Shown here: positions 8,009-25,354 of the stretch, one piece after another | Position numbering within the stretch: position 1 is the first letter of the stretch | Layout: each line of letters starts with the position of its first letter | From: a virus | Taxonomy: Duplodnaviria; Heunggongvirae; Uroviricota; Caudoviricetes | Reading direction: 5' to 3' (one strand) | IMG/VR virus record: IMGVR_UViG_2563366886_000002 | Span: 1-38,381 of that record | DNA length: 38,381 bases | The notes under the pieces: model-generated | The model's input: the letters and a program-made list of their open reading frames with translations, nothing else | Told to the model about the DNA's origin: nothing | Database searches by the model: none | Translations under genes and position numbers: made by a program

Positions 8009-8012
8009 TTCA

Positions 8013-8960: not shown

Positions 8961-9418
8961 GCAGAGTCGCCGCGATTATTTATGCTTTGGTTATCTGCAT
9001 CATCGTCTGCCTGTCGTGGGCGGTCAATCATTACCGTGATAACGCCATCGCCTACAAAGAACAGCGTGATAAAAAAGTCAGTGAGCTGAAGCAGTCGATC
9101 GCCACCATCGCTGACATGCAGCAGCGTCAGCGTGATGTTGCTGCACTCGATGCAAAGTACTCGAGAGAATTAGCCAATGCGAAAGCTGAAAATGAAACTC
9201 TGCGCGCTGATGTTGCCGCTGGTCGTCGTCGGTTGCACATCAAAGCAGTCTGTCAGTCAGTGCGTGAAGCCACCACCGCCTCCGGCGTGGATAATGCAAC
9301 CAGCCCCCGACTGGCAGACACCGCTGAACGGGATTATTTCACCCTCAGAGAGAGGCTGATCACTATGCAAAAACAACTGGAAGGAACCCAGAAGTATATT
9401 AATGAGCAGTGCAGATAG
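8957..9418 (+). CDS. Rz: Rz-like i-spanin
   Basis: GTG start overlapping the endolysin stop (GTGA); N-terminal TM ([17 protein letters not shown]) then coiled-coil periplasmic domain; contains embedded Rz1. Confidence 0.8.
9177..9359 (+). CDS. Rz1: Rz1-like o-spanin lipoprotein embedded in Rz (+1 frame)
   Basis: [24 protein letters not shown]... lipobox LVVVGC followed by proline-rich PPPPPAW stretch. Confidence 0.8.
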
Positions 9419-9449
9419 AGCTGCCCATATCGATGGGCAACTCATGCAA

Positions 9450-9743
9450 TTATTGTGAGCAATACACACGCGCTTCCAGTGGAGTATAAATGCCTAAAGT
9501 AATAAAACCGAGAAATCCATTTACGAATGTTTGCTGGGTTTCTGTTTTAACAACATTTTCTGCGCCGCCACAAATTTTGGCTGCATCAACAGTTTTCTCC
9601 TGTCCAATTCCCGAAACGAAGAAATGATGGGTGATGGTTTCCTTTGGTGTTACTGCTGTCGGTTTGTTTCCAACAGTAAACGTCTGTTGAGCACATCCTG
9701 TAATAAGCATTGCCAGAGCGGCAGAAAACAACATTTTTTTCAT
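9450..9743 (-). CDS. bor: Bor lipoprotein (serum-resistance protein of lambdoid phages)
   Basis: MKKMLFSAALAMLITGCAQQTFTVGNKPTAVTPKETITHHFFVSGIGQEKTVDAAKICGGAENVVKTETQQTFVNGFLGFITLGIYTPLEARVYCSQ, near-identical to lambda Bor from memory. Confidence 0.9.
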   Translation of the reverse strand: MKKMLFSAALAMLITGCAQQTFTVGNKPTAVTPKETITHHFFVSGIGQEKTVDAAKICGGAENVVKTETQQTFVNGFLGFITLGIYTPLEARVYCSQ

Positions 9744-10126
9744 CTTATTATCCTGCATTGTTAAAAACGGCAGAATCCTATGTGACAACAATTAAACGAT
9801 AGTTAAATGGATTGATGAAAATTAAAACTATATAGGTGGATGCTCAGCCTATCGGAGGTAGTCAGGATTTGAATGTCAGTCTGTTGTCGGCATTCTGGCA
9901 ATGCAATTTGGATAAAGCGGGGATTAAAAAGATAGAGGCGAGCCGGTCAGGTAGAAATGAATCAGGCTCAAAGTGAAGCGGAAAAGGTCTGTGGCACAAG
10001 CTGATGCAGCCATAATTACAGCCTGATGATTTGTGGAATGAAACATGTTGAACCTCCTTAATTGATGTTATTCGAGTGATGAAGGCATTCTGTCCTTCTA
10101 TAGTGTCCAGTAAATCAAACAGGAAA

Positions 10127-10148
10127 CTTGTCCAACGTGTTGGACAAG
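10127..10148. repeat. perfect 10-bp inverted repeat with 2-nt spacer upstream of HNH/terS
   Basis: CTTGTCCAAC gt GTTGGACAAG; no T run after it. Confidence 0.6.
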
Positions 10149-10268
10149 CCTCTCCATTAGTGAGTTGTATTGATCACAACTCTACAAAGAATTCATTACT
10201 GGGTAGATGAAAATAGTTTCACTATGAATGGAGGAGGCTATGTCGGTGGCTTCTTCATTGGAGTACAT

Positions 10269-10619
10269 ATGCCCCCACGAATCCCACGCGCCTGCCGTAA
10301 GCGTGGATGTGCAGGTACAACCACAGACAGTTCTGGTTACTGCGATAAACATCGTGGCGAAGGATGGGTACAGCATCAACGCGGACTGAGCCGCCACCAG
10401 CGTGGCTATGGCTCGAAATGGGATGCCATACGTGCGCGCATACTGAAGCGTGATAATCATCTGTGTCAGAACTGCCTGCGCAATGGGAGAGCCGTTGAAG
10501 CCAGAACTGTGGACCACATCATTCCGAAAGCTCATGGTGGCACGGATGCAGACAGTAACCTGCAGAGTCTGTGCTGGCCCTGTCATAAAGCAAAAACAGC
10601 GCGCGAACGCATCAATTGA
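10269..10619 (+). CDS. HNH endonuclease (packaging-associated), helper prophage
   Basis: MPPRIPRACRKRGCAGTTTDSSGYCDKHRGEG...CQNCLRNGRAVEARTVDHIIPKAHGGTDADSNLQSLCWPCHKAKT; immediately upstream of terS/terL. Confidence 0.8.
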   Translation: MPPRIPRACRKRGCAGTTTDSSGYCDKHRGEGWVQHQRGLSRHQRGYGSKWDAIRARILKRDNHLCQNCLRNGRAVEARTVDHIIPKAHGGTDADSNLQSLCWPCHKAKTARERIN

Positions 10620-10766
10620 TAACAGTTCCCATCTGTAGGGGAGGGGCAGGTCAAATCTCTGCAACCCTGGCTGCTCAGTACCGCCGCCTGACCTTTCCTC
10701 GCATCGCCGCAGGTTCGAAAACTTTTTTTTGGAATGTGATTAAATGATTGATAGGTAAAACCGATT

Positions 10767-11249
10767 ATGTCTGGACCCCCGAAAACCCCGCCACGCCTGC
10801 ATTTGATACGAGGTAACCCCTCAAAGCGGCCAGTTAAAGACTCCAAAAAAACCGCTAAAAAGGATGAAAAAGGTCTCCCTAAAATTCCGCAACATTTAGG
10901 GGCGCAGGGGAAGTACTGGTTCAGGCGAATGGCGGAAGAGCTGAATGCGGAAGGGATCATTTCTCAGCTCGATGCACGTGCGCTCGAGTTACTGGTGGAA
11001 GCCTACACCGAATACCGGCATCACTGCGAAATACTCGATGTTGAGGGTTATACCTACCGCACGGAAACGCAGAATGGCGATGTGCTGATCAAGGCACACC
11101 CGGCTGCTGCGATGAAGGCTGATGCCTGGAAGCGGATTCGGGCGATGCTTGCAGAGTTTGGTATGTCACCGGCAAGCCGGGCGAAAGTAAATACCGCCGG
11201 ACCGGATGATGTTGATCCGCTGGCAGAGCTTTTAAAAGCGAGAGACTGA
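10767..11249 (+). CDS. terminase small subunit (P27 family), helper prophage
   Basis: 160-aa ORF between HNH and terL; stop overlaps terL start; P27-family-like composition. Confidence 0.7.
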   Translation: MSGPPKTPPRLHLIRGNPSKRPVKDSKKTAKKDEKGLPKIPQHLGAQGKYWFRRMAEELNAEGIISQLDARALELLVEAYTEYRHHCEILDVEGYTYRTETQNGDVLIKAHPAAAMKADAWKRIRAMLAEFGMSPASRAKVNTAGPDDVDPLAELLKARD

Positions 11250-12277
11250 TGGCAAAAGTGGCTGACGGGATCCGCTACGCCGAACGTGTTGTTGCAGGAG
11301 AAATTGTTGCTGGCGAATTTGTCCGTCTGGCCTGCCAGCGTTTTCTTGATGATCTGAAGTACGGCGAAGAGCGGGGGATTTATTTCAGTGAACCTCGTGC
11401 ACAGCACATCCTTAATTTCTACAAATTTGTACCCCATGTGAAAGGGGCGCTGGCAGGTCAGCCCATTGAGTTGATGGACTGGCATGTGTTTATCCTCATT
11501 AATATTTTTGGTTTTGTCATTCCGCTGGTGAATGAAGAAACCGGGGAAGTTGTCATGCGCAGCGATGGCAGTGGACGCCCGGTGATGGTGCGCCGGTTCC
11601 GGACAGCATACAACGAAGTTGCCCGTAAAAACGCAAAATCAACCCTGTCATCGGGTATCGGTCTGTATATGACGGGGGCAGATGGTGAAGGCGGGGCTGA
11701 GGTGTATTCAGCCGCAACCACGCGTGACCAGGCCAGAATTGTGTTTGAAGACGCCAAAAATATGGTCAGAAAAGCCCGGTCGACACTCGGGCGGTTGTTT
11801 GATTTCAACAAGCTGGCGATTTACCAGGAGCAGAGCGCATCAAAATTTGAACCGCTTTCCTCGGATGCAAACAACCTGGACGGTCTGAACATCCACTGCG
11901 CCATTATTGATGAGCTGCATGCTCATAAAACCCGTGACGTGTGGGACGTTCTGGAAACGGCAACCGGTGCCCGTCTGCAGTCTCTGTTATTTGGCATCAC
12001 CACGGCTGGCTTTAACAAGGAAGGGATTTGCTACGAGCAGCGCGATTACGCCATTAAGGTATTGCGAGGCTATAACAGCGACGTGGAGGGCGCGGTAAAA
12101 GACGACTCCTACTTTGCGATCATTTACACGCTCGATGAGGGAGATGATCCGTTTGATGAAACGGTCTGGCAGAAAGCGAATCCTGGCCTGGGCATCTGTA
12201 AACGCTGGGATGATCTGCGTCGTCTGGCGAAAAAAGCGAAGGAGCAGGTCTCTGCGCGGGTGAATTTTTTTACCAAG
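11249..12277 (+). CDS. terminase large subunit, N-terminal (ATPase) portion only; interrupted by the inserted element
   Basis: MAKVADGIRYAERVV...KANPGLGICKRWDDLRRLAKKAKEQVSARVNFFTKK aligns by eye with residues 1 to about 330 of the intact terL at 25338..26999; frame then reads through the att junction into int. Confidence 0.8.
12263..12277. repeat. attL core (left junction of inserted element)
   Basis: AATTTTTTTACCAAG; 12/15 identical to AATATTCTTACCAAA at 27508..27522, with a 7-bp identical core TTACCAA; both copies in the terL reading frame. Confidence 0.6.
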
Positions 12278-12406
12278 AAAGTAACATCACGCCGTAACAA
12301 CAGTGCGACCTGTCCTGATTTTTTTAGTAACCAAATGAAAGAAAAAGATTTTTTTCTTGTTCGTCGTTTTTGTTTTTTCTGGAAGGTTCTGGCTGTTTTC
12401 ATCATT

Positions 12407-12429
12407 TGTGTATTGCACTGTGTATTGCA
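12407..12429 (+). repeat. tandem direct repeats (candidate integrase arm-type sites / int promoter), left arm
   Basis: TGTGTATTGCA c TGTGTATTGCA 20 bp upstream of the int ATG; related GTGTATTGC pair at 27419..27439. Confidence 0.5.
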
Positions 12430-12448
12430 AAAACGGGTTATAAATCAC

Positions 12449-13671
12449 ATGGCGCTAAACAAACTGAGCGATAAAAAACTTCGTTCCCTGCTTGGACGCA
12501 GGAGTGAGAGGCAGGAAACCATCGCTGATGGTAACGGGCTTTCGGTACGGGTCAGTAAATACGGATGTGTTAGTTTTGTTTTCTTTTACAGACTGGCGGG
12601 AAGGGAAACCGCGCCCATCTGGCTGACACTTGGAAAATATCCTGATCTGAGTCTCAAATCAGCGAGAGAGATGCGCGATCAGTGTCGAACTTGGCTTGCG
12701 GAGGGCAGAGATCCACGGATTCAGATAAAAATTGAACGGGAAGCCACCTTGCAACCTGTTACCGTTCGTGAGGCACTTGAATACTGGCTTGATAATTATG
12801 CAATGGATAAGCGTAGGGGAGCAGAACATATCAGGCAGTGCTTTGGTAAACATATTTATCCGGTGATTGGTCATGTACCACTTAGTGATTGCTCTATATC
12901 TATGTGGATTAAGTGTTTTGACAAAATAAAAAAAGTAGCACCTGTACAGGCCGGAGCTTTGTTGCGTATATCAAAACAGGCGCTTAAATTTTGTAGGGTA
13001 AGAAAATACGCGATTAGTCATGAAATTGATGATCTTGAGGTCTGTGATGTGGGAAAAAAGTCTGCGCGAAGAAGCAGGGTTTTAACAGATGATGAAATCA
13101 GAGATTTATGGCGAAGTATTAATACTGATTATGACAATCACGAATTATCATATGAAAACCGAATTATTTTACGTTTCCTGGTAGTTTTTGGTTGTCGACT
13201 GTCAGAAGTATTACTGTCGTCCTGGGTAGAGTGGGATTTTGATAAGAAATTATGGCGCGTTCCCGCTGATCATAGCAAAAATGGCAGGGAAATAATCAGA
13301 CCGATTCCTGATGGCATGTTTAACTGGTTAGTTACGTTAAAAAAATAACAGGTAACAAAGAAAATGTGATTGGGTTTGATATGCGTCAGTGTACGGCAAG
13401 CGTAACTATCGGTAAGACATGGAAAAGGATGAAACACTCGGAGAAATGGACGGCGCATGATATGCGAAGAGTGTTTGCCACAAAACTAAGTGATCATGGT
13501 TTTGAACATAATGTGGTTGAACAGTTGCTTGGGCACACATTAGGCGGTGTTGCCGGGGTTTATAACAGAAGCCAGTATATGGACAGAAAAAAAGAAGCTA
13601 TGAACTGGTGGTACGACTATCTGAATAAGCAAATTAGTGGTGACAGTAATGATTCAAATAGTTACGCGTGA
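12449..13671 (+). pseudogene. int: tyrosine integrase (P4-like), reading frame split by a frameshift at an A7 run
   Basis: N part MALNKLSDKKLRSLLGRRSERQETIADGNGLSVRV... ends TAA at 13346..13348; catalytic C part (..WTAHDMRRVFATKLSD..LLGH..VYNRSQY) continues in the -1 frame (13366..13671); A7 run at 13339..13345. Confidence 0.6.
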
Positions 13672-13870
13672 AGAACTTGAAAATGATGAAACAATCGACA
13701 GGATGATTAAGGAAGATGAATGTGCATGGTTAACCGCTCTTGGCAGGAGACACAGATCGTTACTTGAAAAGGAAGGAAAATTTCCACGAAAAATATGTAT
13801 TGGCCCACAAACAAAAGTCTGGCGCTTATCTGAGGTGCTGGAATGGGTAAAAGGTGAATGGAAACCCTGA
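13637..13870 (+). CDS. AlpA-family DNA-binding protein (excisionase/regulator-like)
   Basis: ...ECAWLTALGRRHRSLLEKEGKFPRKICIGPQTKVWRLSEVLEWVKG resembles AlpA helix-turn-helix; start uncertain (several Met). Confidence 0.55.
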   Translation: MVTVMIQIVTREELENDETIDRMIKEDECAWLTALGRRHRSLLEKEGKFPRKICIGPQTKVWRLSEVLEWVKGEWKP

Positions 13871-13895
13871 GCTAAATTAAATGAGATATAATCAA

Positions 13896-13918
13896 CCCGT
13901 CTTTTGGCGGGTTTTTTT
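13896..13918 (+). terminator. rho-independent terminator
   Basis: CCCGTC-TTTT-GGCGGG hairpin plus T7. Confidence 0.6.
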
Positions 13919-13933
13919 ATAGGTGATATTTTT

Positions 13934-14212
13934 ATGCAAAAATTTATTTATCCTACACCCGAAGAACGCATTCAGATTCTGAAAGATCATGGCGAACCGT
14001 ATGATCGCCGTATACGCGAACATGAGTGTGCCAATCGTACCGGGCTTTCAAGAAGCAGACGTTGGGTACTTGAACAGGAGGGAGCATTTCCTGCTCGTGC
14101 TCATTTAGGGAAAGTGTCTGTTTCCTGGTTGCTCTCTGATGTGCTCTGGTGGGTTATGCATCCGCCAGGAGTAAAGGAAGTAAACAGCCCATACAAAAAC
14201 GCCAATAAGTAA
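13934..14212 (+). CDS. second AlpA-like DNA-binding protein
   Basis: AGGTGA RBS; MQKFIYPTPEERIQILKDHGEPYDRRIREHECANRTGLSRSRRWVLEQEGAFPARAHLGKVSVSWLLSDVLWWV. Confidence 0.55.
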   Translation: MQKFIYPTPEERIQILKDHGEPYDRRIREHECANRTGLSRSRRWVLEQEGAFPARAHLGKVSVSWLLSDVLWWVMHPPGVKEVNSPYKNANK

Positions 14213-14233
14213 TTACCGACAACCCCGCACCAC

Positions 14234-14261
14234 GCAATGCGGGGTTTTTTGTATGTGAGGT
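14234..14261 (+). terminator. rho-independent terminator
   Basis: CCCCGCA-CCACGCAA-TGCGGGG plus TTTTTT. Confidence 0.7.
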
Positions 14262-14269
14262 AAAAAGCA

Positions 14270-14848
14270 ATGAATAAAAATATTGCCGTGACGGGCAAGG
14301 GTGACGCACGTCATGTGAAAAAATTCTGTGATATTCGTGATCTGGTCGTTCTGCGCTTTGATGGCGTGGATGTTCGTGTGGTGTATCTAAACGGCGATCC
14401 GTGGTTTGTTGCAAAGGATGTTTGTGCTGCGCTGGAACTGACCAATTCGCGTACGGCGTTGCAGATGCTTGATGATGACGAAAAGGGAGTAAATTTAACT
14501 TACACCCCCGGAGGAAATCAGAATATGAGCATTATCTCCGAATCAGGTTTCTACAAACTAATAGCCCGCAGCCGCAAAGCAACGACGCCTGGCACATTTG
14601 CTCATCGTTTCAGTAACTGGGTATTCAGAAATGTGATACCGGGTATCAGAAAAACGGGGGCTTATGGTATCCCGTGGGGCGCATTACAGGATTTTTCCCG
14701 CCGCAAAGAGCAATACCAGATAAGTGCCAGTGAGAAGGGGAGGGAGCTACAGGCATGTAAGCGCAAAAAGCGTGAGCTGGAGGAAGAAGAAAAAAGGCTG
14801 ATACGTGAATACCAGCCTGAGTTTTACTTTGGTGAGCGTATTCAGTAA
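14270..14848 (+). CDS. Bro-N domain protein (antirepressor-like)
   Basis: N-terminal VRVVYLNGDPWFVAKDVCAALELTNSRTALQMLDDDEKG typical of Bro-N/AntA N-terminal domains; charged coiled-coil C-terminus. Confidence 0.6.
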   Translation: MNKNIAVTGKGDARHVKKFCDIRDLVVLRFDGVDVRVVYLNGDPWFVAKDVCAALELTNSRTALQMLDDDEKGVNLTYTPGGNQNMSIISESGFYKLIARSRKATTPGTFAHRFSNWVFRNVIPGIRKTGAYGIPWGALQDFSRRKEQYQISASEKGRELQACKRKKRELEEEEKRLIREYQPEFYFGERIQ

Positions 14849-15126
14849 CCACACGCGGTGTTGATTATACGGTACATCGTGTTGACCGGGAAGCTACCCA
14901 CCAGCAAGGCAAAATCTTCTGCTAAAAAATGACATATGACCAGTCGTCCGGAAAGCATGAAATTTTACAAAAATGGAAAATGAAGATTTTTATTGTGCTG
15001 GTGGGTAAAAACAAAAAGCGCCCCGTTGCCGGAGCGCCCTTGCGAACAATTAACCTACTGCGCAAAAAATGAATATAAGCTGTGGAATTATATCAGACAG
15101 GTGACGAAGCGCCACTATTGCCGGAT

Positions 15127-15162
15127 AACAGGCAAAACAAAGGCGACCGCAAAAGGGTCGCC
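15127..15162 (-). terminator. rho-independent terminator for the leftward regulator operon
   Basis: GGCGACC-GCAAAAG-GGTCGCC perfect 7-bp stem; T-rich on the reverse strand (TTGTTTTGCCTGTT). Confidence 0.6.
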
Positions 15163-15228
15163 AGTGGGAACAAGGGAAAACAAAAGCATCACCAACAATG
15201 CCACATTTGCGGCTGGTGGGCAATGTGA

Positions 15229-15417
15229 TCAGTCAGATTTGGTTCGTTCCAAGGTTTGCAACGAGAGCTTTTTCCTGCGCTCTTTAAGGAATTTCTCAAG
15301 AGCAAACGAACAAGGTGCGAATCTTTCTGATTCATGCTCTATCTTTCTGCGCCGTCTTTTCCGTGTCGGTGATAATGTTTTGGTCAATTCTTTATCGGTC
15401 ATTGTGTTGTCCTGCAT
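15229..15417 (-). CDS. small basic hypothetical protein (62 aa)
   Basis: Reverse-strand ORF MQDNTMTDKELTKTLSPTRKRRRRKIEHESERFAPCSF...; downstream of the repressor-like gene, upstream of the reverse terminator. Confidence 0.35.
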   Translation of the reverse strand: MQDNTMTDKELTKTLSPTRKRRRRKIEHESERFAPCSFALEKFLKERRKKLSLQTLERTKSD

Positions 15418-15459
15418 AGCAATGCGCCGTAGTTACTCACACCACGGCGCTGATAGTGA

Positions 15460-15657
15460 TTATTCTGATTCTTTGGCCTTCCGGCGCTGTTCATATTTTA
15501 ATTTGCGTCCACAGGCATCTAAGACCCATGCGGAAAAATTAGCACTAGGATTAGTTAATTTTTCTTGTTCAACGCTGGCATCAATCCCATCTATAAGCTC
15601 ATGTGGGAATCGAATATTTTTCTTTGCTGATTTGTTGTTTGTGTTACCGCTAGACAT
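15460..15657 (-). CDS. small putative DNA-binding protein; candidate element repressor
   Basis: 65-aa reverse-strand ORF MSSGNTNNKSAKKNIRFPHELIDGIDASVEQEKLTNPSANFSAWVLDACGRKLKYEQRRKAKESE; divergent from, and adjacent to, the palindromic operator-promoter. Confidence 0.4.
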   Translation of the reverse strand: MSSGNTNNKSAKKNIRFPHELIDGIDASVEQEKLTNPSANFSAWVLDACGRKLKYEQRRKAKESE

Positions 15658-15725
15658 TGATGCACCTCACTTAAATGGACTTTATGGGCGCACACAATAC
15701 AGCAAAAAAAATGAGATGTTAAGTA

Positions 15726-15764
15726 TTGACATGTGCGCACACATGATTTTAATCTGTGCGCACA
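15726..15764 (+). promoter_or_regulatory. rightward early promoter of the element overlapped by two palindromic operators
   Basis: TTGACA (15726..15731) and TTTAAT -10 candidates; two perfect 10-bp palindromes TGTGCGCACA at 15732..15741 and 15755..15764, 23 bp centre to centre; degenerate third copy GCGCACACA at 15689..15696. Confidence 0.6.
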
Positions 15765-15862
15765 GTTTGAGTTTTGTCACTCAAATTAAGCAACGCCCCG
15801 CAGTGCTCGCAACACATGCAGGGCGTCTAACCACCAACGATAGCAAGAGTATCGAGGTAGCT

Positions 15863-16066
15863 ATGAGAAATCATACCACACACCCGCAAGGGCGGGACTC
15901 GCACAACCTGAATAAATATATCTGGCGTTTTATCGCCCTGAGCACGGCACAACCGCGCGTGATTACCATTGAGGCCACCAGCGAACAGGAAGCACGCCAG
16001 CAATCCCCGGCTGGCTGCGTGATGGTATTCGCCGCCCGTATTCGTCAGGGGGTACACCATGATTAA
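15863..16066 (+). CDS. hypothetical protein (67 aa), first gene of the rightward operon
   Basis: MRNHTTHPQGRDSHNLNKYIWRFIALSTAQPRVITIEATSEQEARQQSPAGCVMVFAARIRQGVHHD; stop overlaps next start. Confidence 0.45.
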   Translation: MRNHTTHPQGRDSHNLNKYIWRFIALSTAQPRVITIEATSEQEARQQSPAGCVMVFAARIRQGVHHD

Positions 16067-16271
16067 CCTGTCACTTACCGACCTTAACCGCATCCAGTTT
16101 CGTGAGAAATTCACCGGGCAGTTGCTAGTCAATGTGGATAAAGGTCGCGTGGTGAGTAATTACCACCTGCCAGATGAAGCAATTGTCGCAACAAGGGAAT
16201 CATTACAGGAACTCGCAGAGCGTGTCGGAATGATTAACGCGAATATTCAGGGGGGGGTGAGCCATGCATGA
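16059..16271 (+). CDS. hypothetical protein (70 aa)
   Basis: Start-coupled ORF MINLSLTDLNRIQFREKFTGQLLVNVDKGRVVSNYHLPDEAIVATRESLQELAERVG. Confidence 0.45.
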   Translation: MINLSLTDLNRIQFREKFTGQLLVNVDKGRVVSNYHLPDEAIVATRESLQELAERVGMINANIQGGVSHA

Positions 16272-16497
16272 TATTTACAATGACACAGTAGATCATGCAT
16301 ACAGCGCACTTGCTTACAGTGAAAACATGCTTGAAATATTGCGCTTATGGCTTGAAACGCTTGGCGATAATGAAAGAGATAAACGCAACAGCAATATTGC
16401 AACAGCATTAATAACGCTTCTTGAGCCTGTAATAAATGAACTGCAAGAAATAGACATCTTGCACGACAGATATAAAGAGCAACACACCGGGAAATAA
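16264..16497 (+). CDS. hypothetical protein (77 aa)
   Basis: Start-coupled ORF MHDIYNDTVDHAYSALAYSENMLEILRLWLETLGDNERDKRNSNIATALITLLEPVINELQE. Confidence 0.45.
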   Translation: MHDIYNDTVDHAYSALAYSENMLEILRLWLETLGDNERDKRNSNIATALITLLEPVINELQEIDILHDRYKEQHTGK

Positions 16498-16502
16498 AAA
16501 CC

Positions 16503-16802
16503 ATGAAACAGAAAATTTCTGGCTTTACTGCCAGCGGCCCCGCTCGGCCTGAAATCCGCCCCGGCGATATTTTCCGGGATAACTACGGCGGCACGGTAAC
16601 GATTAAAAGCGTGGCGGGACGGTGCGTTACTTACCGCCGTGATGGGTACGGCTATGACTGCGTGATGCCTGTTTATCAGTTCCGGCGTGATTTTTCTCTG
16701 GTACAGAACGCAACACGCGGTAAGCCCACCAGCAGGGAAAAAGCACGGGAAAATATTAAGAAAATAAAAAGCATGCTCAGCGCATCCAGAGGTAAAAAAT
16801 GA
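16503..16802 (+). CDS. hypothetical protein (99 aa)
   Basis: MKQKISGFTASGPARPEIRPGDIFRDNYGGTVTIKSVAGRCVTYRRDGYGYDCVMPVYQFRRDF...; stop overlaps the rep start (ATGA). Confidence 0.45.
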   Translation: MKQKISGFTASGPARPEIRPGDIFRDNYGGTVTIKSVAGRCVTYRRDGYGYDCVMPVYQFRRDFSLVQNATRGKPTSREKARENIKKIKSMLSASRGKK

Positions 16803-18919
16803 AACTGGCACCGAACGTAAAACTGTTACCGAAAGATAAAGGCGAGGATGCAGTGATTTTTGCGGGGGATGACGCATACAGCCACGCAGAGCATTACATG
16901 CAGGGCGGAGAAGCCAGAAAGCGCGGCGACAAAATACCACCTGTTTATCTCGGGCGGCGTGACCTGGGTAATCTGGAAAACCTGCGTATTGTGGATGATG
17001 GACGGTTACGCGCCATGGTCAGACGTGCCGGAAAGCTGGATGACAGACAGGCGTTACAGATTGAAACCCTGCTGGCAGTGGCTGGTGTTAAGGAAGCCAG
17101 TTTTTGTGACGAGAACGGTGAACTACTGGAGGACTGGACACCGCAGCTTGCCCGGCTGAAAGACGAATACGAGCGCGGGGAAAGTCTGGTGTTGCCCTTA
17201 AAGAAAAAAATCACAGAAAGCCAGGGCGATGATGAATTAAAGCCCCGCGTTGAAAGTCGCGCCGATGGTGTTTTCTGGGTAACGCCCAAAGTTGACAAGC
17301 AGTCAGGCGAAATTATCCGGCCTGAGACGTGGTTATGTTCCCCGCTTGAACTACTGGGAACGGGGACAATCGGCAAAGAGCATTACCGCGTGATGCGCTG
17401 GAAGAAACCCGCAAACCATGAAGTCATCACAATGGCGGTTCCGTGCGGGGGCATTGGCGACCGTGACGGCTGGCGGTTGCTGAAAGACCACGGCCTTAAC
17501 GTAACAACTAACGGCAAATACAGGGCTATCCTGGCTGACTGGATGCAGTTAAGCGGAAACCATGAGGAATGGCAGTTAAGCACAACAACGGGCTGGCATT
17601 TTGGTGCGTACATCATGCCGGACGGTTCAGTCATTGGTGAGTCTGAAAAACCGATCCTGTTTACCGGAAAAACGGCTGCCGTTAATGGCTATTCTGTGGC
17701 AGGAACGGCGGAGGGCTGGCGCGATACCGTTGCGCGGCTGGCTGGTGGTAATCCGTCCATGATGCTGGGTGTGGCGGTATCGTTATCCGCACCATTAATC
17801 GGGCTGGTGGGTGCTGACGGCTTCGGGGTACATCTTTTCGAACAGTCATCGGCAGGGAAAACCACCACACAGAACATCGCATCCAGTTTATGGGGAGAGC
17901 CGGACGCGCAACGGCTGACCTGGTACGGTACAGCGTTAGGCATCGCCAACGAGGCAGAGGCGCACAATGACGGGCTATTACCCCTGGATGAAATAGGTCA
18001 GGCCGGAAACGCGCGGGAAGTGTCCACGTCGGCTTATACGCTGTTTAACGGTTCGGGGAAATTACAGGGGGCGAAGGACGGCGGCAACAGGGAGATCAAA
18101 CACTGGCGCACGGTGGCAATCAGCACCGGAGAAATGGACGTTGAGACATTCCTCAAAACGGAGGGGATAAAAGTCAAGGCGGGGCAGCTTGTCCGCCTGC
18201 TTAACGTGCCAATGGAAAAAGCCACGCAGTTTCACGAATACAGCACCGGAAAGGCACACGCAGACGCGTTAAAGGATGCCTGGACAGAAAATCACGGGGC
18301 GGCGGGGCGTGAATGGGTTAAATGGCTGGCAGACCACCAGCAGGAGGCAAAGGATACGGTAAGGGCATGCCGTGAACGGTGGCGCAACCTGATACCGGAG
18401 AGTTACGGCGAACAGGTTCACCGTGTGGGGGAACGATTCGCCATGCTGGAGTCGGCGCTGGTGCTTTCCGTCCATATTACTGGTTGGGATGTTCAGGCGT
18501 GCCGCGATGCCATTCAGCATAATTTTAATGCCTGGGTGAAGGAGTTCGGCACGGGTAACAGGGAGTTTAAACAGATGGTTGAACAGGCAGAGGCTTTTTT
18601 AGCGTCGTTCGGATTCAGCAGATACCTTCCGTGGCCCAACACCGACGAGCGTGATTTACCGATTAAAGAGCTTGCCGGATACAGAAAGGGGAGTATCAGA
18701 AACGAAGATGACGAGTTCCGTTTTTACACGTTCCCGCATGTATTTGAGGGTGAGATAGCACAGGGATTTAATCCGTCTCACTTTGCCCGCGCGTTGAGTG
18801 CTGCCGGAATGCTGGAAGCGGGTAACGATCGCCGTTACAAGAAAAAGGCGCTCGGCAAAATTGGGGGGAAGCAGCATGTTTTTTACGTGCTGATGTTCCA
18901 GCCTGAGGCAGAAGATTAA
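16799..18919 (+). CDS. replication protein, DUF927-type P-loop NTPase (primase/helicase-like) of the element
   Basis: 706-aa ORF with Walker A GxxxxGKT (SSAGKTTTQN); followed immediately by an iteron cluster; architecture typical of satellite/PICI replication genes. Confidence 0.6.
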   Translation: MKLAPNVKLLPKDKGEDAVIFAGDDAYSHAEHYMQGGEARKRGDKIPPVYLGRRDLGNLENLRIVDDGRLRAMVRRAGKLDDRQALQIETLLAVAGVKEASFCDENGELLEDWTPQLARLKDEYERGESLVLPLKKKITESQGDDELKPRVESRADGVFWVTPKVDKQSGEIIRPETWLCSPLELLGTGTIGKEHYRVMRWKKPANHEVITMAVPCGGIGDRDGWRLLKDHGLNVTTNGKYRAILADWMQLSGNHEEWQLSTTTGWHFGAYIMPDGSVIGESEKPILFTGKTAAVNGYSVAGTAEGWRDTVARLAGGNPSMMLGVAVSLSAPLIGLVGADGFGVHLFEQSSAGKTTTQNIASSLWGEPDAQRLTWYGTALGIANEAEAHNDGLLPLDEIGQAGNAREVSTSAYTLFNGSGKLQGAKDGGNREIKHWRTVAISTGEMDVETFLKTEGIKVKAGQLVRLLNVPMEKATQFHEYSTGKAHADALKDAWTENHGAAGREWVKWLADHQQEAKDTVRACRERWRNLIPESYGEQVHRVGERFAMLESALVLSVHITGWDVQACRDAIQHNFNAWVKEFGTGNREFKQMVEQAEAFLASFGFSRYLPWPNTDERDLPIKELAGYRKGSIRNEDDEFRFYTFPHVFEGEIAQGFNPSHFARALSAAGMLEAGNDRRYKKKALGKIGGKQHVFYVLMFQPEAED

Positions 18920-18941
18920 CCCCCTGTGTGAGGTGAAAAGT

Positions 18942-19066
18942 TGCGGGTTATGCGGGTTATCCTGTGTATAAGTGCATTAACTGTATGAATAAAAAGGAAA
19001 TCAGTAACCCGCACGTAACCCGCAAAACGGCAGTTATAACCCGCAAAAGTGCGATTATAACCCGCA
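18942..19066. repeat. iteron cluster (candidate origin of replication of the element)
   Basis: 9-mer TGCGGGTTA twice in tandem (18942..18959), AT-rich spacer, then inverted copies TAACCCGCA at 19005, 19016, 19037, 19058. Confidence 0.65.
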
Positions 19067-19129
19067 GAATTTCACCGTAAGGGTGTAAACAAGCGTAACA
19101 ATCAACGTTAAAACCGGAGAACAGACAGC

Positions 19130-19555
19130 ATGACAGCACAGATAGCGGCTTACGGGCGGCTGGTGGCTGACCCGCAGTTAAAGACCACCAGCAAGGGGAC
19201 ACAAATGGCTATGGCGAGTATGGCGGTTCCCCTGCCGTGCAGCCAGGCAGATGACGGAACGGCGACGATGTGGTTATCCGTCCTGGCGTTTGGCAGACAG
19301 GCCGATGCACTGGCAAAACACCAGAAAGGCGAACTGGTGAGTGTGGCGGGTAACATGCAGGTAAGCCAGTGGACAGGCCAGAACGGCGAAATGCGGCAGG
19401 GCTGGCAGGTCATCGCAGACAGCGTAATCAGTGCGCGAACGGCGCGACCGGGCGGCAAAAAAGGCCAGCAGGGCCAGGCTACTGACGCACTGAACAGGGC
19501 AAAACAACAGACAGGCCAGCACGATGATCCGTACGGGGACGGGATACCGTTTTAA
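19130..19555 (+). CDS. ssb: single-stranded DNA-binding protein
   Basis: OB-fold-like N-terminus (IAAYGRLVADPQLKTTSKGTQMAMASMAV), Gly/Gln-rich linker, acidic tail ending DDPYGDGIPF (SSB-type DIPF tail); GGAGAA RBS. Confidence 0.7.
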   Translation: MTAQIAAYGRLVADPQLKTTSKGTQMAMASMAVPLPCSQADDGTATMWLSVLAFGRQADALAKHQKGELVSVAGNMQVSQWTGQNGEMRQGWQVIADSVISARTARPGGKKGQQGQATDALNRAKQQTGQHDDPYGDGIPF

Positions 19556-19570
19556 GCAGTGAGGTACAGC

Positions 19571-19867
19571 ATGATTAAAGACAGCAAAGCGGAAGAACTG
19601 GAGGCTAAAGGGCTGTACCGGAGAGCGGCGGCACGTTGGGCTGATGTTATGTGGCTGGTGAGCACTGACAAGGAGCGCGAACAGGTGGCAAAGCGTCGCG
19701 CGGAATGTATCCGTAAGGCAGCGCGCCAACCAGTCATACCGGATAATTTCGGAATACTGAAAGAGGCCATAAACCGCACACATACCGGGATGGGCTTACA
19801 GAAACCTGGCGGTGAGATGTTCAGGAACTACCCGAAAAAAAAGGGGATAATTGATAACGGTTGTTAA
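19571..19867 (+). CDS. PerC-family transcriptional regulator-like protein
   Basis: MIKDSKAEELEAKGLYRRAAARWADVMWLVSTDKEREQVAKRRAECIRKA resembles PerC/Pch proteins as recalled; GAGG RBS. Confidence 0.45.
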   Translation: MIKDSKAEELEAKGLYRRAAARWADVMWLVSTDKEREQVAKRRAECIRKAARQPVIPDNFGILKEAINRTHTGMGLQKPGGEMFRNYPKKKGIIDNGC

Positions 19868-19899
19868 CTGTTTCTGGTATCGTGGTAGCAGGAGGAAAC

Positions 19900-20148
19900 A
19901 TGCCTGTGACATTTGAAGAAGTTCAGCAACATAAAAAGTTTCATGGTTTTGATGATCTGGAAACCACGACAGCAAAAAAATATCGCCGTCTGCTTTCTTC
20001 CGATGCGTTGTTTGTTGTGGATCATCATGATTTTCTGCGCAGCTCACTGACCGGGGAAATTTTCGCAACCAACCGTGAGCAGGTGGAAGCGATGATCGAA
20101 TACCTGTGGAAACTAAGAAGCAGAATGCGGGATCCCGTGAAACGGTAA
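19900..20148 (+). CDS. hypothetical protein (82 aa)
   Basis: AGGAGG RBS; MPVTFEEVQQHKKFHGFDDLETTTAKKYRRLLSSDALFVVDHHDFLRSSLTGEIFATNREQVEAMIEYLWKLRSRMRDPVKR. Confidence 0.45.
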   Translation: MPVTFEEVQQHKKFHGFDDLETTTAKKYRRLLSSDALFVVDHHDFLRSSLTGEIFATNREQVEAMIEYLWKLRSRMRDPVKR

Positions 20149-20157
20149 AATGATAAA

Positions 20158-20185
20158 GGCCTGGTAAAATCCAGGCCATTTTTTT
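20158..20185. terminator. terminator hairpin between convergent genes
   Basis: GGCCTGG-TAAAAT-CCAGGCC followed by ATTTTTTT on the plus strand. Confidence 0.65.
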
Positions 20186-20690
20186 ACAGTAAGCCTATTA
20201 AGGCACTTGCGCCAGCCCCAACAATGCTGGCAACGGTACTGTTTTCCAGTAACTGCTTTAATACTGATTTGGCTTGTACATCCCCCGATTTAGAGACTTT
20301 TTCAACCAGTTCAGTGATGCTGATGTTTACCAGCATATGGTTATGCTCACCTATCTGCACTTGATTACCACTAATTGAACCAATGTTAAATGTATTACTT
20401 TTAGGTGGCGTCATATGTTCATTTCCCGTGATATTTTCAATATAGAGCGTCAACATATTTGGATGGTTGGTTCCCTGTCTGAGGGTTCCATTGGGAAGCA
20501 ACTTCATATCTATAATTTTTAGATTTATCTCGTTTTTACCGACACACTGGATAATGTGTTGACCAATAGTTACTTCCGGTTCATTTGTATATGGAATTAA
20601 TACCTTGTTTTCTTTTGCGTTTCTTTTACCTTTAAATGATTCGCCATTAATTATGAAAGTATCAGGGTATACCATTGCGCTTAAATTCAT
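20184..20690 (-). CDS. AT-rich accessory protein of unknown function (168 aa) with hydrophobic Gly/Ala-rich C-terminal tail
   Basis: Reverse-strand ORF MNLSAMVYPDTFIINGESFKGKRNAKENKVLIPYTNEPEV...NSTVASIVGAGASALIGLL; AAAGGA RBS; markedly lower GC than the flanking modules; own upstream region and terminator. Confidence 0.5.
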   Translation of the reverse strand: MNLSAMVYPDTFIINGESFKGKRNAKENKVLIPYTNEPEVTIGQHIIQCVGKNEINLKIIDMKLLPNGTLRQGTNHPNMLTLYIENITGNEHMTPPKSNTFNIGSISGNQVQIGEHNHMLVNISITELVEKVSKSGDVQAKSVLKQLLENSTVASIVGAGASALIGLL

Positions 20691-20976
20691 GATGCGTCCT
20701 TTGTTGTAGTCAGAGGTAGCAATAATAGGCCATGGTTTACTTCTTTTGTAAATTATTTGTTCGTGTTTTTTCGTGGTTGTTCGGCCTTACTGACAGGTGT
20801 TTACATACTGATTTTTATGTATATGTTGGCGTGTGGCACTCAGACGTGAGCCGCCACAATGCCGCCTGACCCCCTGCGCGATGCCGGGTTGATCTGCGAG
20901 ATGCCGAGAGTGTCGGGCGGCGCTCCCTCCGTGTTGGTTTCACGTCCTGAATCTTAACCAATACGAGAAAACCTTC

Positions 20977-22146
20977 ATGAAGAAATTAATCGAACTCCGC
21001 CAGCAAAAAACCGCCCTGAAAAACCAGATGCGATCCCTGCTGGAAAAAGCCGACAGTGAAAACCGCAGCCTGAACGATGACGAGGGCAAACAGTTTGATG
21101 AACTGCGTGCAAAAGCCGATTCCCTCGACACAGAAATTTCCCGCCTCGAGTCTGTGGCTGATGAAGAACGCAGCAAGCCAGGAACGGGCATCCAGAAATT
21201 ATCATCTGATGAATTGCGTAACTACATCGTAACCGGAGATGTGCGATCACTGACCACCAGCACTGACAGCGGCAGGGATGGCGGATATACCGTAATTCCT
21301 GAGCTTGATCGCGAAGTCATGCGCCAGCTACAGGATGACAGTGTTATGCGCGTGATCGCGACCGTGAAGACCGCAAAATCAAATGAGTTTCAGAAACTGG
21401 TTTCCACTGGCGGCGCAACTGTAGGACGAGGCACAGAAGGCAGCGCACGTAGTGAAACCAACACCCCGAAAATTGAACGTGTAACCATCAAGCTGAATCC
21501 GATCTACGCCTACCCGAAAACCACGCAGGAAATCCTGGATTTTTCAGAGGTGGATATTCTGGGCTGGTTATCCTCCGAAATTGCCGACACGTTCGCCAGC
21601 ACCGAAGAGGATGATTTTGTTAATGGCGACGGTAACGGCAAGCCGAAAGGCTTCATGGCTTACACCCGTGCGGCGACCAGTGACAAAACCCGCGCTTTTG
21701 GCACCATTGAAAAAGTGGTAGCGGCAAGTGGAACCGCCATTACAGCGGACGAACTGATCGACATTCTCTACAAGCTGAAAGCGAAATACCGCAAAAATGC
21801 CGTCTGGGTGATGAACTCGGGCACGGCAGGGACACTACAGAAGCTGAAAAATGAGAATGGCGATTATATCTGGCGCGACAGCCTTAAAGAAGGTGCGCCG
21901 GATATGTTGCTTGGTCGTCCTGTTTTCTGCCTGGAGTCCATGCCGGACATCGGCGCAGGAAAAGCACCGCTAGCGGTTGGCGATTTCAGTCGTGGTTATT
22001 TCATCGTTGATCATGTAACAGGGATTCGCACCCGACCGGACAACATTACTGAACCCGGATTCTACAAGGTCCACACGGATAAATATCTGGGCGGTGGTGT
22101 GGTGGATTCAAACGCCATCAAAATTCTGGAAATGAAAGCTGGCTAG
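20977..22146 (+). CDS. major capsid protein, HK97 fold (element copy)
   Basis: 389-aa ORF with N-terminal coiled-coil delta-domain-like region then capsid-like body; paralogous by eye to the helper capsid at 30232..31449. Confidence 0.75.
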   Translation: MKKLIELRQQKTALKNQMRSLLEKADSENRSLNDDEGKQFDELRAKADSLDTEISRLESVADEERSKPGTGIQKLSSDELRNYIVTGDVRSLTTSTDSGRDGGYTVIPELDREVMRQLQDDSVMRVIATVKTAKSNEFQKLVSTGGATVGRGTEGSARSETNTPKIERVTIKLNPIYAYPKTTQEILDFSEVDILGWLSSEIADTFASTEEDDFVNGDGNGKPKGFMAYTRAATSDKTRAFGTIEKVVAASGTAITADELIDILYKLKAKYRKNAVWVMNSGTAGTLQKLKNENGDYIWRDSLKEGAPDMLLGRPVFCLESMPDIGAGKAPLAVGDFSRGYFIVDHVTGIRTRPDNITEPGFYKVHTDKYLGGGVVDSNAIKILEMKAG

Positions 22147-22200
22147 TCATGAGTAAGGAGGAGGCTGCGGCCTCCTTTTTCAGCTTTATGGAGTACACCG

Positions 22201-22761
22201 ATGAAAAACACCGATTTTGAAATCCGCACATCTGAACTGACCGCCAGCAATAAAAAGCTGGTGGGGTATGCCGTTCGCTGGAACAGCCTTTCAGAAATTA
22301 TCTGGGACGAATTCCGCGAACAGTTCACGCCGGGGGCTTTTGCTGACTATCTGGCGGCGGGTAATGATGTGCGCTGCCTGTATGAGCATGACTATACCCA
22401 ACTGCTGGGGCGCACCAAATCCGGCACTCTGGTACTGACTGGGGACAACACCGGGCTACGTTTTGAACTGACACCGCCTGATACCCAGCTTGGAAAAGAT
22501 GTGCTCACGCTGGTGTCGCGTGGCGACATTACAGGAATGAGCTTTGGCTTTCGCGCATTATGCGAAGAATGGAATATCGCGCAAAAACCGTATTTGCGTA
22601 CCGTAACCGCCGCTGAACTCCGAGAAATCACAATAACGTCGATGCCTGCTTATCCAGAATCTGGCGTGGAGATTGCCCACCGTTCGTTGTTTGCACAGCA
22701 CCCTGAATTACGCCCGGCAGGAAATAATCGTCATCGCTGGGCTGAACTGGCGGGGTTGTGA
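22201..22761 (+). CDS. prohead protease, HK97 family (element copy)
   Basis: 186-aa ORF between capsid and portal; resembles the helper protease at 29618..30217. Confidence 0.7.
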   Translation: MKNTDFEIRTSELTASNKKLVGYAVRWNSLSEIIWDEFREQFTPGAFADYLAAGNDVRCLYEHDYTQLLGRTKSGTLVLTGDNTGLRFELTPPDTQLGKDVLTLVSRGDITGMSFGFRALCEEWNIAQKPYLRTVTAAELREITITSMPAYPESGVEIAHRSLFAQHPELRPAGNNRHRWAELAGL

Positions 22762-22762
22762 T

Positions 22763-23977
22763 ATGTGGTGGCCTTTTAGTCGTAAAAAAAGCGAGCAACG
22801 TAACCTGTCCATTGATGATTTTCTGGCGCTGTCCGGCGTACCGAATACCGGATCCGGAGAATATGTTTCTGCCGGGACGGCTGAATCATTGCCTGCTGTG
22901 ATGAACGCGGTTTCTGTCATCGCTGAGGCGGTGGCCACGATGCCGTGTTATCTGTATCTGGTACGTAATGACAAGGGCAGGGAGGCGCGGGAATGGCTGG
23001 ACAGTCATCCGGTAGATATTCTGCTGAATGAGCAGCCTAATTCGTGCCAGACACCTTACCAGTTTAAACGCACAATGATGCGTCACTGTCTGCTGAACGG
23101 TAACGCCTATGCGGTTATTGAGTGGGGGCAGGACGGGCAGCCAAAATCACTTCATCCTTATGCGCCGGGGTGTGTTGTACCGGAACGCACAGGCGCACAC
23201 AAATACCGCTATACCATCACCGAACCCTGTACAGGAACGGTGCGCACGTATTTACAGGAAGAAGTTCTGCATCTCCGCTATGCCTCGGATGATGGCTTTC
23301 TGGGGCGCTCCCCTGTCACGATTTGCCGTGAGGCGCTGGGGCTTGGCCTTGCTCAACAGCGCCACGGAGCCAGCATTATGAAAGATGGCATGATGGCGGC
23401 AGGGATTATCACGTCAGGCGAATGGCTGGACGGCGTGAAAGGTAAACAGGCATTAGACGCACTGGAACGCTACAAGGGGGCGAAAAATGCCGGAAAAACG
23501 CCAATCCTTGAAGGGGGCATGGATTACAAGCAACTGGGAATGAGTAACCAGGATGCTGAATGGCTGGCCTCCCGTCGCTTCTCCATTGAAGACATTGCCC
23601 GTATGTTCAACGTGTCGCCGATTTTTCTTCAGGAATACAGCAACAGCACCTACAGCAATTTCAGTGAGGCAAGCCGCGCGTTTCTGACTATGACAATGCG
23701 TCCGTGGCTGGCGAACTTCGAACAGCAAATCAAGGCCGCTTTGCTGGTGGCTTCTCCCGTACCTGGTACCCGTTATCTGGTTGAGTTTGATTCAGCCGAT
23801 TTACTGCGCGCCACCCCTACCGAACGTTACGCCACGTATGAGAAAGGGATTAAGAACGGGATCATGAATCCGAACGAAGCCCGTGAGCGTGAGGGAATGC
23901 CGCCGCGTGAAGGTGGCGACGAGTTCAGCCAGGCATGGAAGCAGACTGTGGAAATTAAAGGTGAAAAAGATGAGTGA
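22763..23977 (+). CDS. portal protein, HK97 family (element copy)
   Basis: 404-aa ORF MWWPFSRKKSEQRNLSIDDF...; conserved stretches shared with the helper portal (e.g. FLQEYSNSTYSNFSEASRAFLTMTMRPWLANFEQQ vs FSNITQQAIQFVRYTMMPWVANWEQE). Confidence 0.8.
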   Translation: MWWPFSRKKSEQRNLSIDDFLALSGVPNTGSGEYVSAGTAESLPAVMNAVSVIAEAVATMPCYLYLVRNDKGREAREWLDSHPVDILLNEQPNSCQTPYQFKRTMMRHCLLNGNAYAVIEWGQDGQPKSLHPYAPGCVVPERTGAHKYRYTITEPCTGTVRTYLQEEVLHLRYASDDGFLGRSPVTICREALGLGLAQQRHGASIMKDGMMAAGIITSGEWLDGVKGKQALDALERYKGAKNAGKTPILEGGMDYKQLGMSNQDAEWLASRRFSIEDIARMFNVSPIFLQEYSNSTYSNFSEASRAFLTMTMRPWLANFEQQIKAALLVASPVPGTRYLVEFDSADLLRATPTERYATYEKGIKNGIMNPNEAREREGMPPREGGDEFSQAWKQTVEIKGEKDE

Positions 23978-24269
23978 AGACAAAATTACACCTGATGAAG
24001 TCAGGGCACATCTTCGCCTTGATGACTTTTCCGGAGAAGGCGAACTTCTGAAAATGTATACCGATGCGGCGCTGGAAGCCTGCCAGAAGCATATCGGGAA
24101 ACGTTTTGAAGACGGGCTGGAATTTACCCCGGCAATACGTGTTGGTTGCCTGATGTACATCGCTTTCCTGTACGAGAACAGGGAAGCGGTTTCACCTGTG
24201 GAACAGTCTGAACTGCCTATGGCTATTTCTGCGCTCTGGTCGGTTTATCGTGATGTGGGGGTGTACTGA
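23970..24269 (+). CDS. head-tail connector protein (gp6-like), element copy
   Basis: MSEDKITPDEVRAHLRLDDFSGEGELLKMYTDAALEACQKHIGKRF...; start overlaps portal stop (ATGAGTGA). Confidence 0.6.
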   Translation: MSEDKITPDEVRAHLRLDDFSGEGELLKMYTDAALEACQKHIGKRFEDGLEFTPAIRVGCLMYIAFLYENREAVSPVEQSELPMAISALWSVYRDVGVY

Positions 24270-24709
24270 TGCCGTGGCAACCATTAAGGCGATGCACTGA
24301 GCCGGGCTGTAATAAGCGCGTGAAGTCCGGCAAGTGTGAAGAGCACAGGCGGGCTGCATGGCGTGCAGAGGATGCCAGACGGGGGCACCGCCGCGCGCGT
24401 GGGTATTCCCGGCAGTGGGACAAATACCGCGCCCTGTACCTGAGCAAAAACCCGTTATGCGTGCGTTGTCTGGCTAAGGGGATTTATACGCCAGCTCTTG
24501 TGGTGGATCACATCATTCCCATCAATGGCGGCGGTGATGTTCTCTTCTGGCCTGAGTGGAACCACCAGGCATTGTGCCAGACGTGCCACAACCGTAAGAC
24601 GACACGGGAAGATCCAGCCACGAAAGCGAACCGTAAGGCGGGCATGTATCGCGAGCAGGAAGAACGGGCGGCACATCGTAACGACTGGATGTATGGCGAT
24701 GATGACTGA
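24269..24709 (+). CDS. HNH endonuclease (element copy)
   Basis: CTEPGCNKRVKSGKCEEH ... VVDHIIPINGGGDVLFWPEWNHQALCQTCHNRKT; start overlaps connector stop. Confidence 0.8.
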   Translation: MPWQPLRRCTEPGCNKRVKSGKCEEHRRAAWRAEDARRGHRRARGYSRQWDKYRALYLSKNPLCVRCLAKGIYTPALVVDHIIPINGGGDVLFWPEWNHQALCQTCHNRKTTREDPATKANRKAGMYREQEERAAHRNDWMYGDDD

Positions 24710-24997
24710 ACAGGAGCAAAACAGGCTGATACGTGGACTGATAAGGCAGCGTGACTTATGGAAGACACAGGAGACAGGGCACAAAGTCAACAGGACAGGG
24801 CGCACAGAACGCACCACACCGAAGCGATTAACCGACCGTGACCGCGAGGTCATGGAATGTTTTCGCAATCGCTGGTGAGGCTGTCAGAGGGGGTGGGGGA
24901 GGTTTTCAGGACGAAACCGTCCCTGCCGGACACCGACCGCCTCCTCAAATTTTTGTGCACGGGAATTTTTTTGAAAATAATTGGGCGAAAAAAGAAC

Positions 24998-25354
24998 ATG
25001 GCAAGACCACCAAAAGCCCCCGCTTACCTGGATGAAATCGCGGTCAGGCAGTGGAAGGAAAAATCGCGCCAGCTTTCCGGGCGGGAAGACCTTACCCCCG
25101 CCGACTGGAGCAATCTGGAGCTGTATTGCGTTAACTACTCCATATACCGCAAAGCCGTCGAAGACCTTGCGACGCGCGGATTCAGCATTGTTAACAGTCA
25201 GGGCAGTGAGAGCAGAAACCCCGCCCTGAGCGCAAAGGCTGACGCAGAAAGAATAATGATCAAAATGGCTTCTTTGCTGGGTTTTGACCCGGTAAGCCGC
25301 CGCAGAAATCCACCGGAAACAGAGGAAGAGGACGAGCTTGACCGCCTGGCATGA
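24998..25354 (+). CDS. terminase small subunit (P27 family), element copy
   Basis: MARPPKAPAYLDEIAVRQWKEKSRQLSGREDLTPADWSNLELYCVNYSIYRKAVEDL...; precedes terL; start chosen by analogy to the helper terS. Confidence 0.65.
   Translation: MARPPKAPAYLDEIAVRQWKEKSRQLSGREDLTPADWSNLELYCVNYSIYRKAVEDLATRGFSIVNSQGSESRNPALSAKADAERIMIKMASLLGFDPVSRRRNPPETEEEDELDRLA

Follow-up and report, generated by a model that had tools for sequence, protein, structure and literature searches.

A putative two-module, iteron-based Rep origin separated by kilobases of cargo genes in a capsid-forming satellite

Reading of iterons by a C-terminal domain of the initiator protein is accepted for SaPI Rep and for the alpha protein of P4. 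P4 alpha binds two sites, ori and crr, and both of them are needed in cis. In the GenBank annotation of P4 (NC_001609), type-1 repeats are found in crr directly 3' of alpha and again in ori, which lies 4.7 kb away. The origin of PICIs comprises two iteron sets around an A+T-rich region and is located 3' of pri/rep. The rep-ori segment of EcCICFT073 is known to drive plasmid replication experimentally (Fillol-Salom et al., 2018; PMC6092414). Some PICIs are embedded in a helper. An interrupted late gene of a prophage is a known configuration of these helper-embedded PICIs (HE-PICIs), and a doubled TGTATTGC attP motif has been described for the HE-PICI integrase clade (Nagy et al., 2023; PMC10111431).

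The stretch of DNA analyzed here (the window, 38,381 nucleotides, IMG/VR record IMGVR_UViG_2563366886_000002) contains an array of a 9-mer, TGCGGGTTA, that is similar to a PICI/SaPI origin in its position after rep and in its two iteron sets around an A+T-rich spacer. The original prediction was that this array, at 18942-19066, is the ori of the element. The prediction holds in kind, as the array is directly 3' of rep, has the layout of a PICI origin and covaries with the Rep C-terminus, and it falls short in that the array appears not to be the whole origin. A second TGCGGGTTA cluster, which the prediction did not report, is found at 27080-27234, downstream of the satellite terL. From the sequence, we read 18942-19066 as module A of the two-module Rep origin of a capsid-forming satellite, with module B separated from it at 27080-27234, and we give this reading a probability of about 0.8. 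Coordinates are collected in Table 1.

Table 1. Positions of the replication features and of the element ends in the window.
Feature	Position	Strand	Description
attL core TTACCAA	12270..12276		satellite left end, inside prophage terL
Rep	16799..18919	+	706-aa DUF927 helicase, presumed initiator (Pfam)
Module A abutting iterons TGCGGGTTA x2	18942..18959 (copies at 18942, 18951)	+	9-bp period; exact match
Module A A+T-rich spacer	18960..19004		45 bp, 68.9% A+T (composition)
Module A inverted iterons x4	19005..19066 (19005, 19016, 19037, 19058)	-	phased 11, 21, 21 bp
Satellite SSB	19130..19555	+	first gene after module A; Pfam SSB E = 1.4e-15
Module B phased iterons TGCGGGTTA x3	27080..27131 (27080, 27102, 27123)	+	spaced 22, 21 bp
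Module B A+T-rich spacer	27132..27207		76 bp, 71.1% A+T
Module B abutting inverted iterons x3	27208..27234 (27209, 27217, 27226)	-	copy at 27209 has one mismatch
Module B flank ..CTGTTTTGTATATATATACGAAAA	27235..27262		aligns with right end of relatives' contiguous origins
Doubled attP-arm motif TGTATTGC x2	27418..27441	+	second copy 12407-12430; distinct from iterons
attR core TTACCAA	27515..27521		satellite right end

The element that carries the array is a 15,245-bp capsid-forming, helper-embedded PICI inserted in the terL gene of a prophage. Joining of the flanks in silico at the TTACCAA cores restores one 585-codon frame of the prophage terL. This gene (window 11249-12276 and 27522-28251) is split at position 64 of the Pfam TerL_nuclease profile. 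The early genes of the satellite encode an integrase, AlpA, a Bro-N protein, an Icd-like protein, a DUF4222 protein, Rep, SSB and PerC. The later genes encode a major capsid protein, a prohead protease, a portal, a connector, HNH, TerS and TerL. The satellite contains neither tail nor lysis genes and is co-oriented with the late gene of the prophage. Its gene set, its insertion in terL and its TGTATTGC motif match those of HE-PICIs (Nagy et al., 2023; PMC10111431) and cf-PICIs (bioRxiv 10.1101/2022.09.08.507074), and nothing essential is different.

The closest complete genome is that of E. coli 042, to which the window is not identical. The satellite (12110-27274) is nearly identical to the E. 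coli 042 copy, with two 1-bp indels in 15 kb, whereas the flanking prophage (10274-12109 and 27275-31016) is about 1-2% different (137 mismatches). This contrast suggests that the satellite has recently moved from one related prophage to another, or that the prophage has recombined. Compared with E. coli 042, the integrase gene (12335-13671) has one A missing at 13339, which leaves two frames, an ORF that ends at 13348 and a second one at 13366-13671. It is possible that this strain's satellite can no longer excise, in which case the helper terL would be permanently broken. Between the satellite HNH and TerS there is a gap of about 290 bp without a long ORF (24710-24997). In HK97-like phages cos is found at the position between HNH and TerS, and on account of this shared position 24710-24997 is likely the cos site of the satellite. 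At 14993-16066, a TTG-initiated ORF of 357 codons has no Pfam match. RefSeq has only a partial hypothetical pseudogene and a YlcI/YnfO-family gene on the opposite strand there, and the ORF is probably not a real gene. The prophage part has two Rfam matches, to the antitoxin RNA sok (107 bits) and to STnc100, an sRNA (132 bits), at 2370-2541 and 6486-6675. It also contains two tRNA genes called by ARAGORN at 5537-5787, a tRNA-Met(CAT) and a tRNA-Arg, the first of which is a tRNA-Ile in RefSeq for E. coli 042.

To call the gene upstream of module A a primase/helicase gene would overstate it. Rep matches the Pfam family DUF927 (PF06048) with E = 2e-46 and 159 bits against a cut-off of 22.6, and a Walker A-like SSAGKTT and a Walker B-like LLPLDE are readable in its translation. 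In the PDB, its sequence matches 8tch_A, named a "Pathogenicity island protein", at E = 4.5e-14, and Cch (5dgk, "Active helicase") at E = 2e-3. A Foldseek search with the Rep model, which is a poor one, returned 5dgk, the SCCmec helicase Cch, as the sole significant match (E = 8.6e-5). Pfam finds DUF927 only and no primase domain (Zn-ribbon or Toprim) in Rep, and longer relatives of about 930 aa contain a Zn-ribbon and a Toprim ahead of DUF927. Rep is similar to the self-loading helicases Cch and SaPI Rep (DUF927 / MCM-like) in its DUF927 domain, its sequence matches to 8tch_A and 5dgk and its fold match to 5dgk. It differs from them by an extra N-terminal domain of about 140 residues.

Modeled with AlphaFold on a 17-sequence alignment, full-length Rep reached a mean pLDDT of 50.5, with confidence at residues 1-125 only. 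For residues 561-706 (71-sequence alignment) the mean pLDDT was 50.2, and the helix-helix-hairpin seen there is only suggestive of a winged-helix type DNA-binding domain. Both models are too poor to assign a fold to the N- or C-terminal domain. The N-terminal domain (16799-17220) is modeled confidently as an alpha/beta fold; across most of residues 1-120 the pLDDT is 82-91. Neither a Pfam match nor a significant fold match was found for it. The same domain is common to the otherwise unrelated DUF927, AAA_25 and D5_N/DUF5906/Pox_D5 Reps of sister satellites. It might serve all of them as an adaptor, perhaps to a host primase.

Two tandem copies of TGCGGGTTA, an A+T-rich spacer and four inverted copies are located exactly where they had been predicted, and the spacings of the inverted copies, given as roughly 11 and 21 bp, are confirmed as start-to-start distances of 11, 21 and 21 bp. 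The array was also correctly placed directly after the DUF927 gene: the rep stop is at 18919, the first iteron starts at 18942, and the array is situated between this gene and ssb. Eleven exact copies of TGCGGGTTA are found in the 38 kb (both strands), against about 0.29 expected, and all of them are confined to the two clusters. With one mismatch allowed there are 20 matches, compared with 8.5 +/- 2.3 in shuffled sequences, and this number is reached in 0 of 100 shuffles. The spacer of module A is 68.9% A+T against 50.7% for the satellite as a whole, and 4.4% of the 45-bp windows of the satellite are as A+T-rich or more so. Two nearby candidates were rejected. A one-mismatch TGCGGGTTA at 19168 is ssb coding sequence rather than an iteron and is present also in a relative (L002) whose iteron differs. 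A DnaA box, TTATACACA, at 18963-18971 in the module A spacer was taken as chance. It is absent as a conserved feature from the origins of distant relatives, and the window has three DnaA-box-like matches against 1.3 expected, a number reached by 13 of 100 shuffles.

Relatives of the window Rep were collected at 80 loci, with one genome per species, and a repeat was callable in 69 of these. The iteron array begins no more than about 40 bp past the rep stop at all 69 callable loci and contains 4-12 copies. The repeated word itself is variable. At least 15 different 8-9-mers are found among the 69 loci, including GTTGGTTCA, GTCGGTTCA, GTTGTCTCA and ACGGGTTA as well as GTGGGTTA, CTTATCCCA, AGTGTGTCA and GTTGTACCA. 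The iteron class varies with the last ~100 residues of Rep rather than with its helicase core. The Rep of L002, with the iteron CTTGTCCCA, is 95% identical to the window Rep over residues 150-600 and 30-38% identical at the C-terminus. For L061, identity to the window Rep is 53% in the core, 16% in the N-terminal part and 71-80% at the C-terminus, and the iteron, ACGGGTTA, is one base from GCGGGTTA. Over all pairs, C-terminal identity averages 71% for Reps with the same iteron and 46% for Reps with different iterons. That the 9-mer differs between lineages and tracks the Rep C-terminus supports the view that the repeats are Rep-specific origin iterons. The pattern is as would be expected if the C-terminal domain of Rep reads the iterons.

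In our judgment it is extremely improbable that the repeats are sites for some other protein (an integrase arm site, a cosB-like terminase site or an operator) and are unrelated to replication. Such sites would suit the position of module B, which immediately follows terL and is separated from attR by about 280-430 bp. The iteron class nevertheless follows the Rep C-terminus, and no promoter, terminator or Rfam match is found in either module. Integrase arm sites are ruled out, as the arm motif of this integrase clade is the doubled TGTATTGC, which is present separately. A terminase or cos signal in module B is likewise ruled out, as homologs of module B are fused to module A after rep in satellites that have no terminase genes.

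Module B has the same 9-mer as module A in a mirrored layout. When the 60-bp duplexes of the entire satellite are ranked by stability, the least stable one begins at 27140, inside the module B spacer. On the circularized element the two modules are about 8.1 kb and 7.1 kb apart, with ssb, perC and the complete capsid-terminase operon in between. Of 5,426 complete E. coli genomes, 145 contain DNA similar to module B (at least 80% coverage).

The relatives place this second cluster in context. About 43 of the 69 loci have a contiguous A+B origin of 250-320 bp with around 12 iterons. Its module A consists of two to three abutting copies, an A+T-rich spacer and four opposite copies phased 11/21/21. 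It is followed by a short linker, often with CTGGCTGG. Its module B consists of three copies phased 21-22, an A+T-rich spacer and three abutting opposite copies, and then ..GTTTTGTTTATATATA. The first window cluster corresponds to this module A by itself, and the second matches the plan of module B exactly. Window positions 18920-19076 and 27056-27275 were joined in silico. Six contiguous origins, of the GTGGGTTA and ACGGGTTA classes, align collinearly with the joined sequence, and the alignment extends to non-iteron flanks such as TTAGCAnGCnAAGA, which precedes the abutting copies, and GTTTTGTnTATATA, which follows them. Judged by this collinearity, flanks included, module B is taken to be the ortholog of the second half of the origin, displaced by 8.1 kb. 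In a capsid-forming PICI of Winslowiella (L003), which has the same packaging module and a TerL that is 81% identical, A and B are fused after rep.

The fused arrangement bears on whether the window might instead contain two independent, complete and mirrored origins, each of which fires alone. This is possible, though in our judgment unlikely. Both spacers are A+T-rich, some relatives apparently have module A only, and each module taken alone fits the layout of a PICI origin (PMC6092414). The modules are nonetheless fused in most relatives, with conserved order, orientation and linker, which suggests one functional unit.

A split origin is found also in L002 (CTTGTCCC class) and in six loci of the TTGGTTCA class from several genera (L021, L028, L030, L036, L038 and L057). 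In these split relatives module B is 2.3-9 kb downstream of module A, and order and orientation are constant. The distal iteron is the same as the proximal iteron in every case. In the distal module B of the TTGGTTCA class, the iteron columns have 81% pairwise identity compared with 55% for the other columns, and the 21-22-bp phasing is kept. Among close relatives, fetched via the satellite TerL, module B is present in 16 of the 16 that have this Rep class and enough downstream sequence, a co-occurrence that could reflect shared ancestry rather than selection. In some close relatives it is about 1 kb further from terL. Among the distant split elements, only L036 yielded an att repeat (19 bp), with a possible one of 14 bp in L038, so the distance from module B to the end of the element is not to be generalized. 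In L024 (Yersinia pekkanenii, 7153-13204) there are three TTGGTTCA clusters in 6 kb, two of which have an identical pattern and are 4.6 kb apart. These clusters may stem from a satellite that is duplicated or in tandem, or from a repeat in the assembly.

Module B is also found without its partner. Five elements and perhaps a sixth (L085, L090, L104, L117, L131 and perhaps L129) are mosaics that combine near-identical packaging genes and an intact TGCGGGTTA module B with a different Rep. The Rep of these mosaics is of the AAA_25 type or of the EcCICFT073-like D5_N type, and has only the ~140-residue N-terminal domain in common with the window Rep. The mosaics have their own iterons after the rep gene, AAAAGTGGGGA or GGTAGA-type. 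As the orphan TGCGGGTTA module B is located beside an unrelated Rep that has its own iterons, module B is dispensable for the mosaic replicons, where it may be hitch-hiking. In L085, L090, L104, L117 and L131, rep and module A seem to have been swapped as a cassette that left the orphan module B after terL. The breakpoints fall within the N-terminal domain that these Reps have in common and a short way upstream of ssb. The reverse situation is seen in five A-only relatives (L032, L042, L045, L055 and L064), in which module B is absent within 10 kb of module A. On the basis of these five, module A alone may be sufficient.

The orphan copies that persist beside unrelated Reps, and the five relatives without a detectable module B, could mean that module A is the sole working origin and that module B is a functionless leftover of a DNA insertion or of module exchange. 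We regard this as improbable. The split recurs in three iteron classes with matched A and B iterons, the distal iterons and phasing of the TTGGTTCA class are conserved across several genera where the spacers diverge, and it is module B that holds the least stable duplex of the satellite.

Titration and handcuffing by iterons are established mechanisms in iteron plasmids, for example at incA in plasmid P1. Module B, with the same iterons at a distance from the rep-proximal array, could act similarly as a negative control element that titrates Rep or handcuffs with module A, and so limits or times replication. There is little to recommend this role for a module that contains an easily melted A+T-rich spacer and a full, mirrored origin architecture, and that is part of a contiguous origin in most relatives. 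Moreover, an induced satellite that over-replicates has little obvious need of a copy limit.

We return to the reading of A and B as two modules of one Rep origin. Its operation can be outlined by homology with known initiators. After induction, Rep would bind both arrays via its C-terminal domain. An A+T-rich spacer would then melt, perhaps preferentially the one in module B, which holds the least stable duplex. Rep is predicted to load itself as a ring helicase, as has been proposed for SaPI Rep and Cch. The host primase and polymerase would then take over, aided by the satellite SSB. Use of a host primase is presumed since the window Rep has no primase domain. With P4 as a precedent, Rep bound at A and B might also pair the modules by looping, and might in this way rebuild the contiguous origin in space. 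A stronger version of this idea is tentative, and we consider it more doubtful than probable. It states that the split mirror halves, which bracket the genes from ssb to terL, must loop via Rep in order to fire, and that this P4-like arrangement arose independently in the DUF927 helicases, a non-homologous family, as cargo was repeatedly inserted into the linker of an originally contiguous origin. Module B is located at the right edge of the satellite beside the portal-to-tail genes of the helper. If split-origin looping were true, firing before excision could amplify the helper tail genes that this tail-stealing satellite needs.

Split modules are found in several lineages, including the widespread capsid-forming PICIs of E. 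coli. Contiguous, split, A-only and orphan-B loci form a natural series in which the roles of the modules and the P4-like cooperation of distant arrays can be studied. For the window element, cloning of rep with the downstream repeats may give an incomplete origin. The pairs of Rep C-terminus and iteron are ready specificity classes for the engineering of satellite-based vectors.

EcCICFT073 and P4 are two systems with which this locus can be compared. The gene order DUF4222-rep-ori-ssb-perC is common to EcCICFT073 and the window. EcCICFT073 has a Rep of the D5_N/DUF5906/Pox_D5 type and GGTAGA iterons in one place, whereas the window has a DUF927 Rep and an origin split by 8.1 kb. P4 ori/crr and the window origin both have two separated clusters of one repeat, one of them 3' of the helicase gene, and each cluster contains both orientations. 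Replication of P4 starts at the distal site, and its crr consists of a 120-bp unit in duplicate, whereas the window modules are mirror halves of what is one contiguous unit in relatives. The proteins also differ. P4 alpha matches nine Pfam families, none of which is DUF927 (Zn-ribbon primase, Toprim and D5_N/DUF5906/Pox_D5 type), whereas the window Rep matches DUF927 only. In BLASTP, Rep showed no meaningful similarity to P4 alpha, with a best E-value of 0.011 across 54 residues. As the two proteins are not detectably homologous, the window origin would be described, by analogy, as one that works like P4 ori/crr and not as a member of that group. The PICI, cf-PICI and HE-PICI papers searched make no mention of a second, distal origin module, and its absence from the wider literature is unproven. 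An iteron origin after the rep gene of a satellite is known PICI biology, and the mirrored two-module plan, together with its repeated splitting by kilobases, is apparently new.
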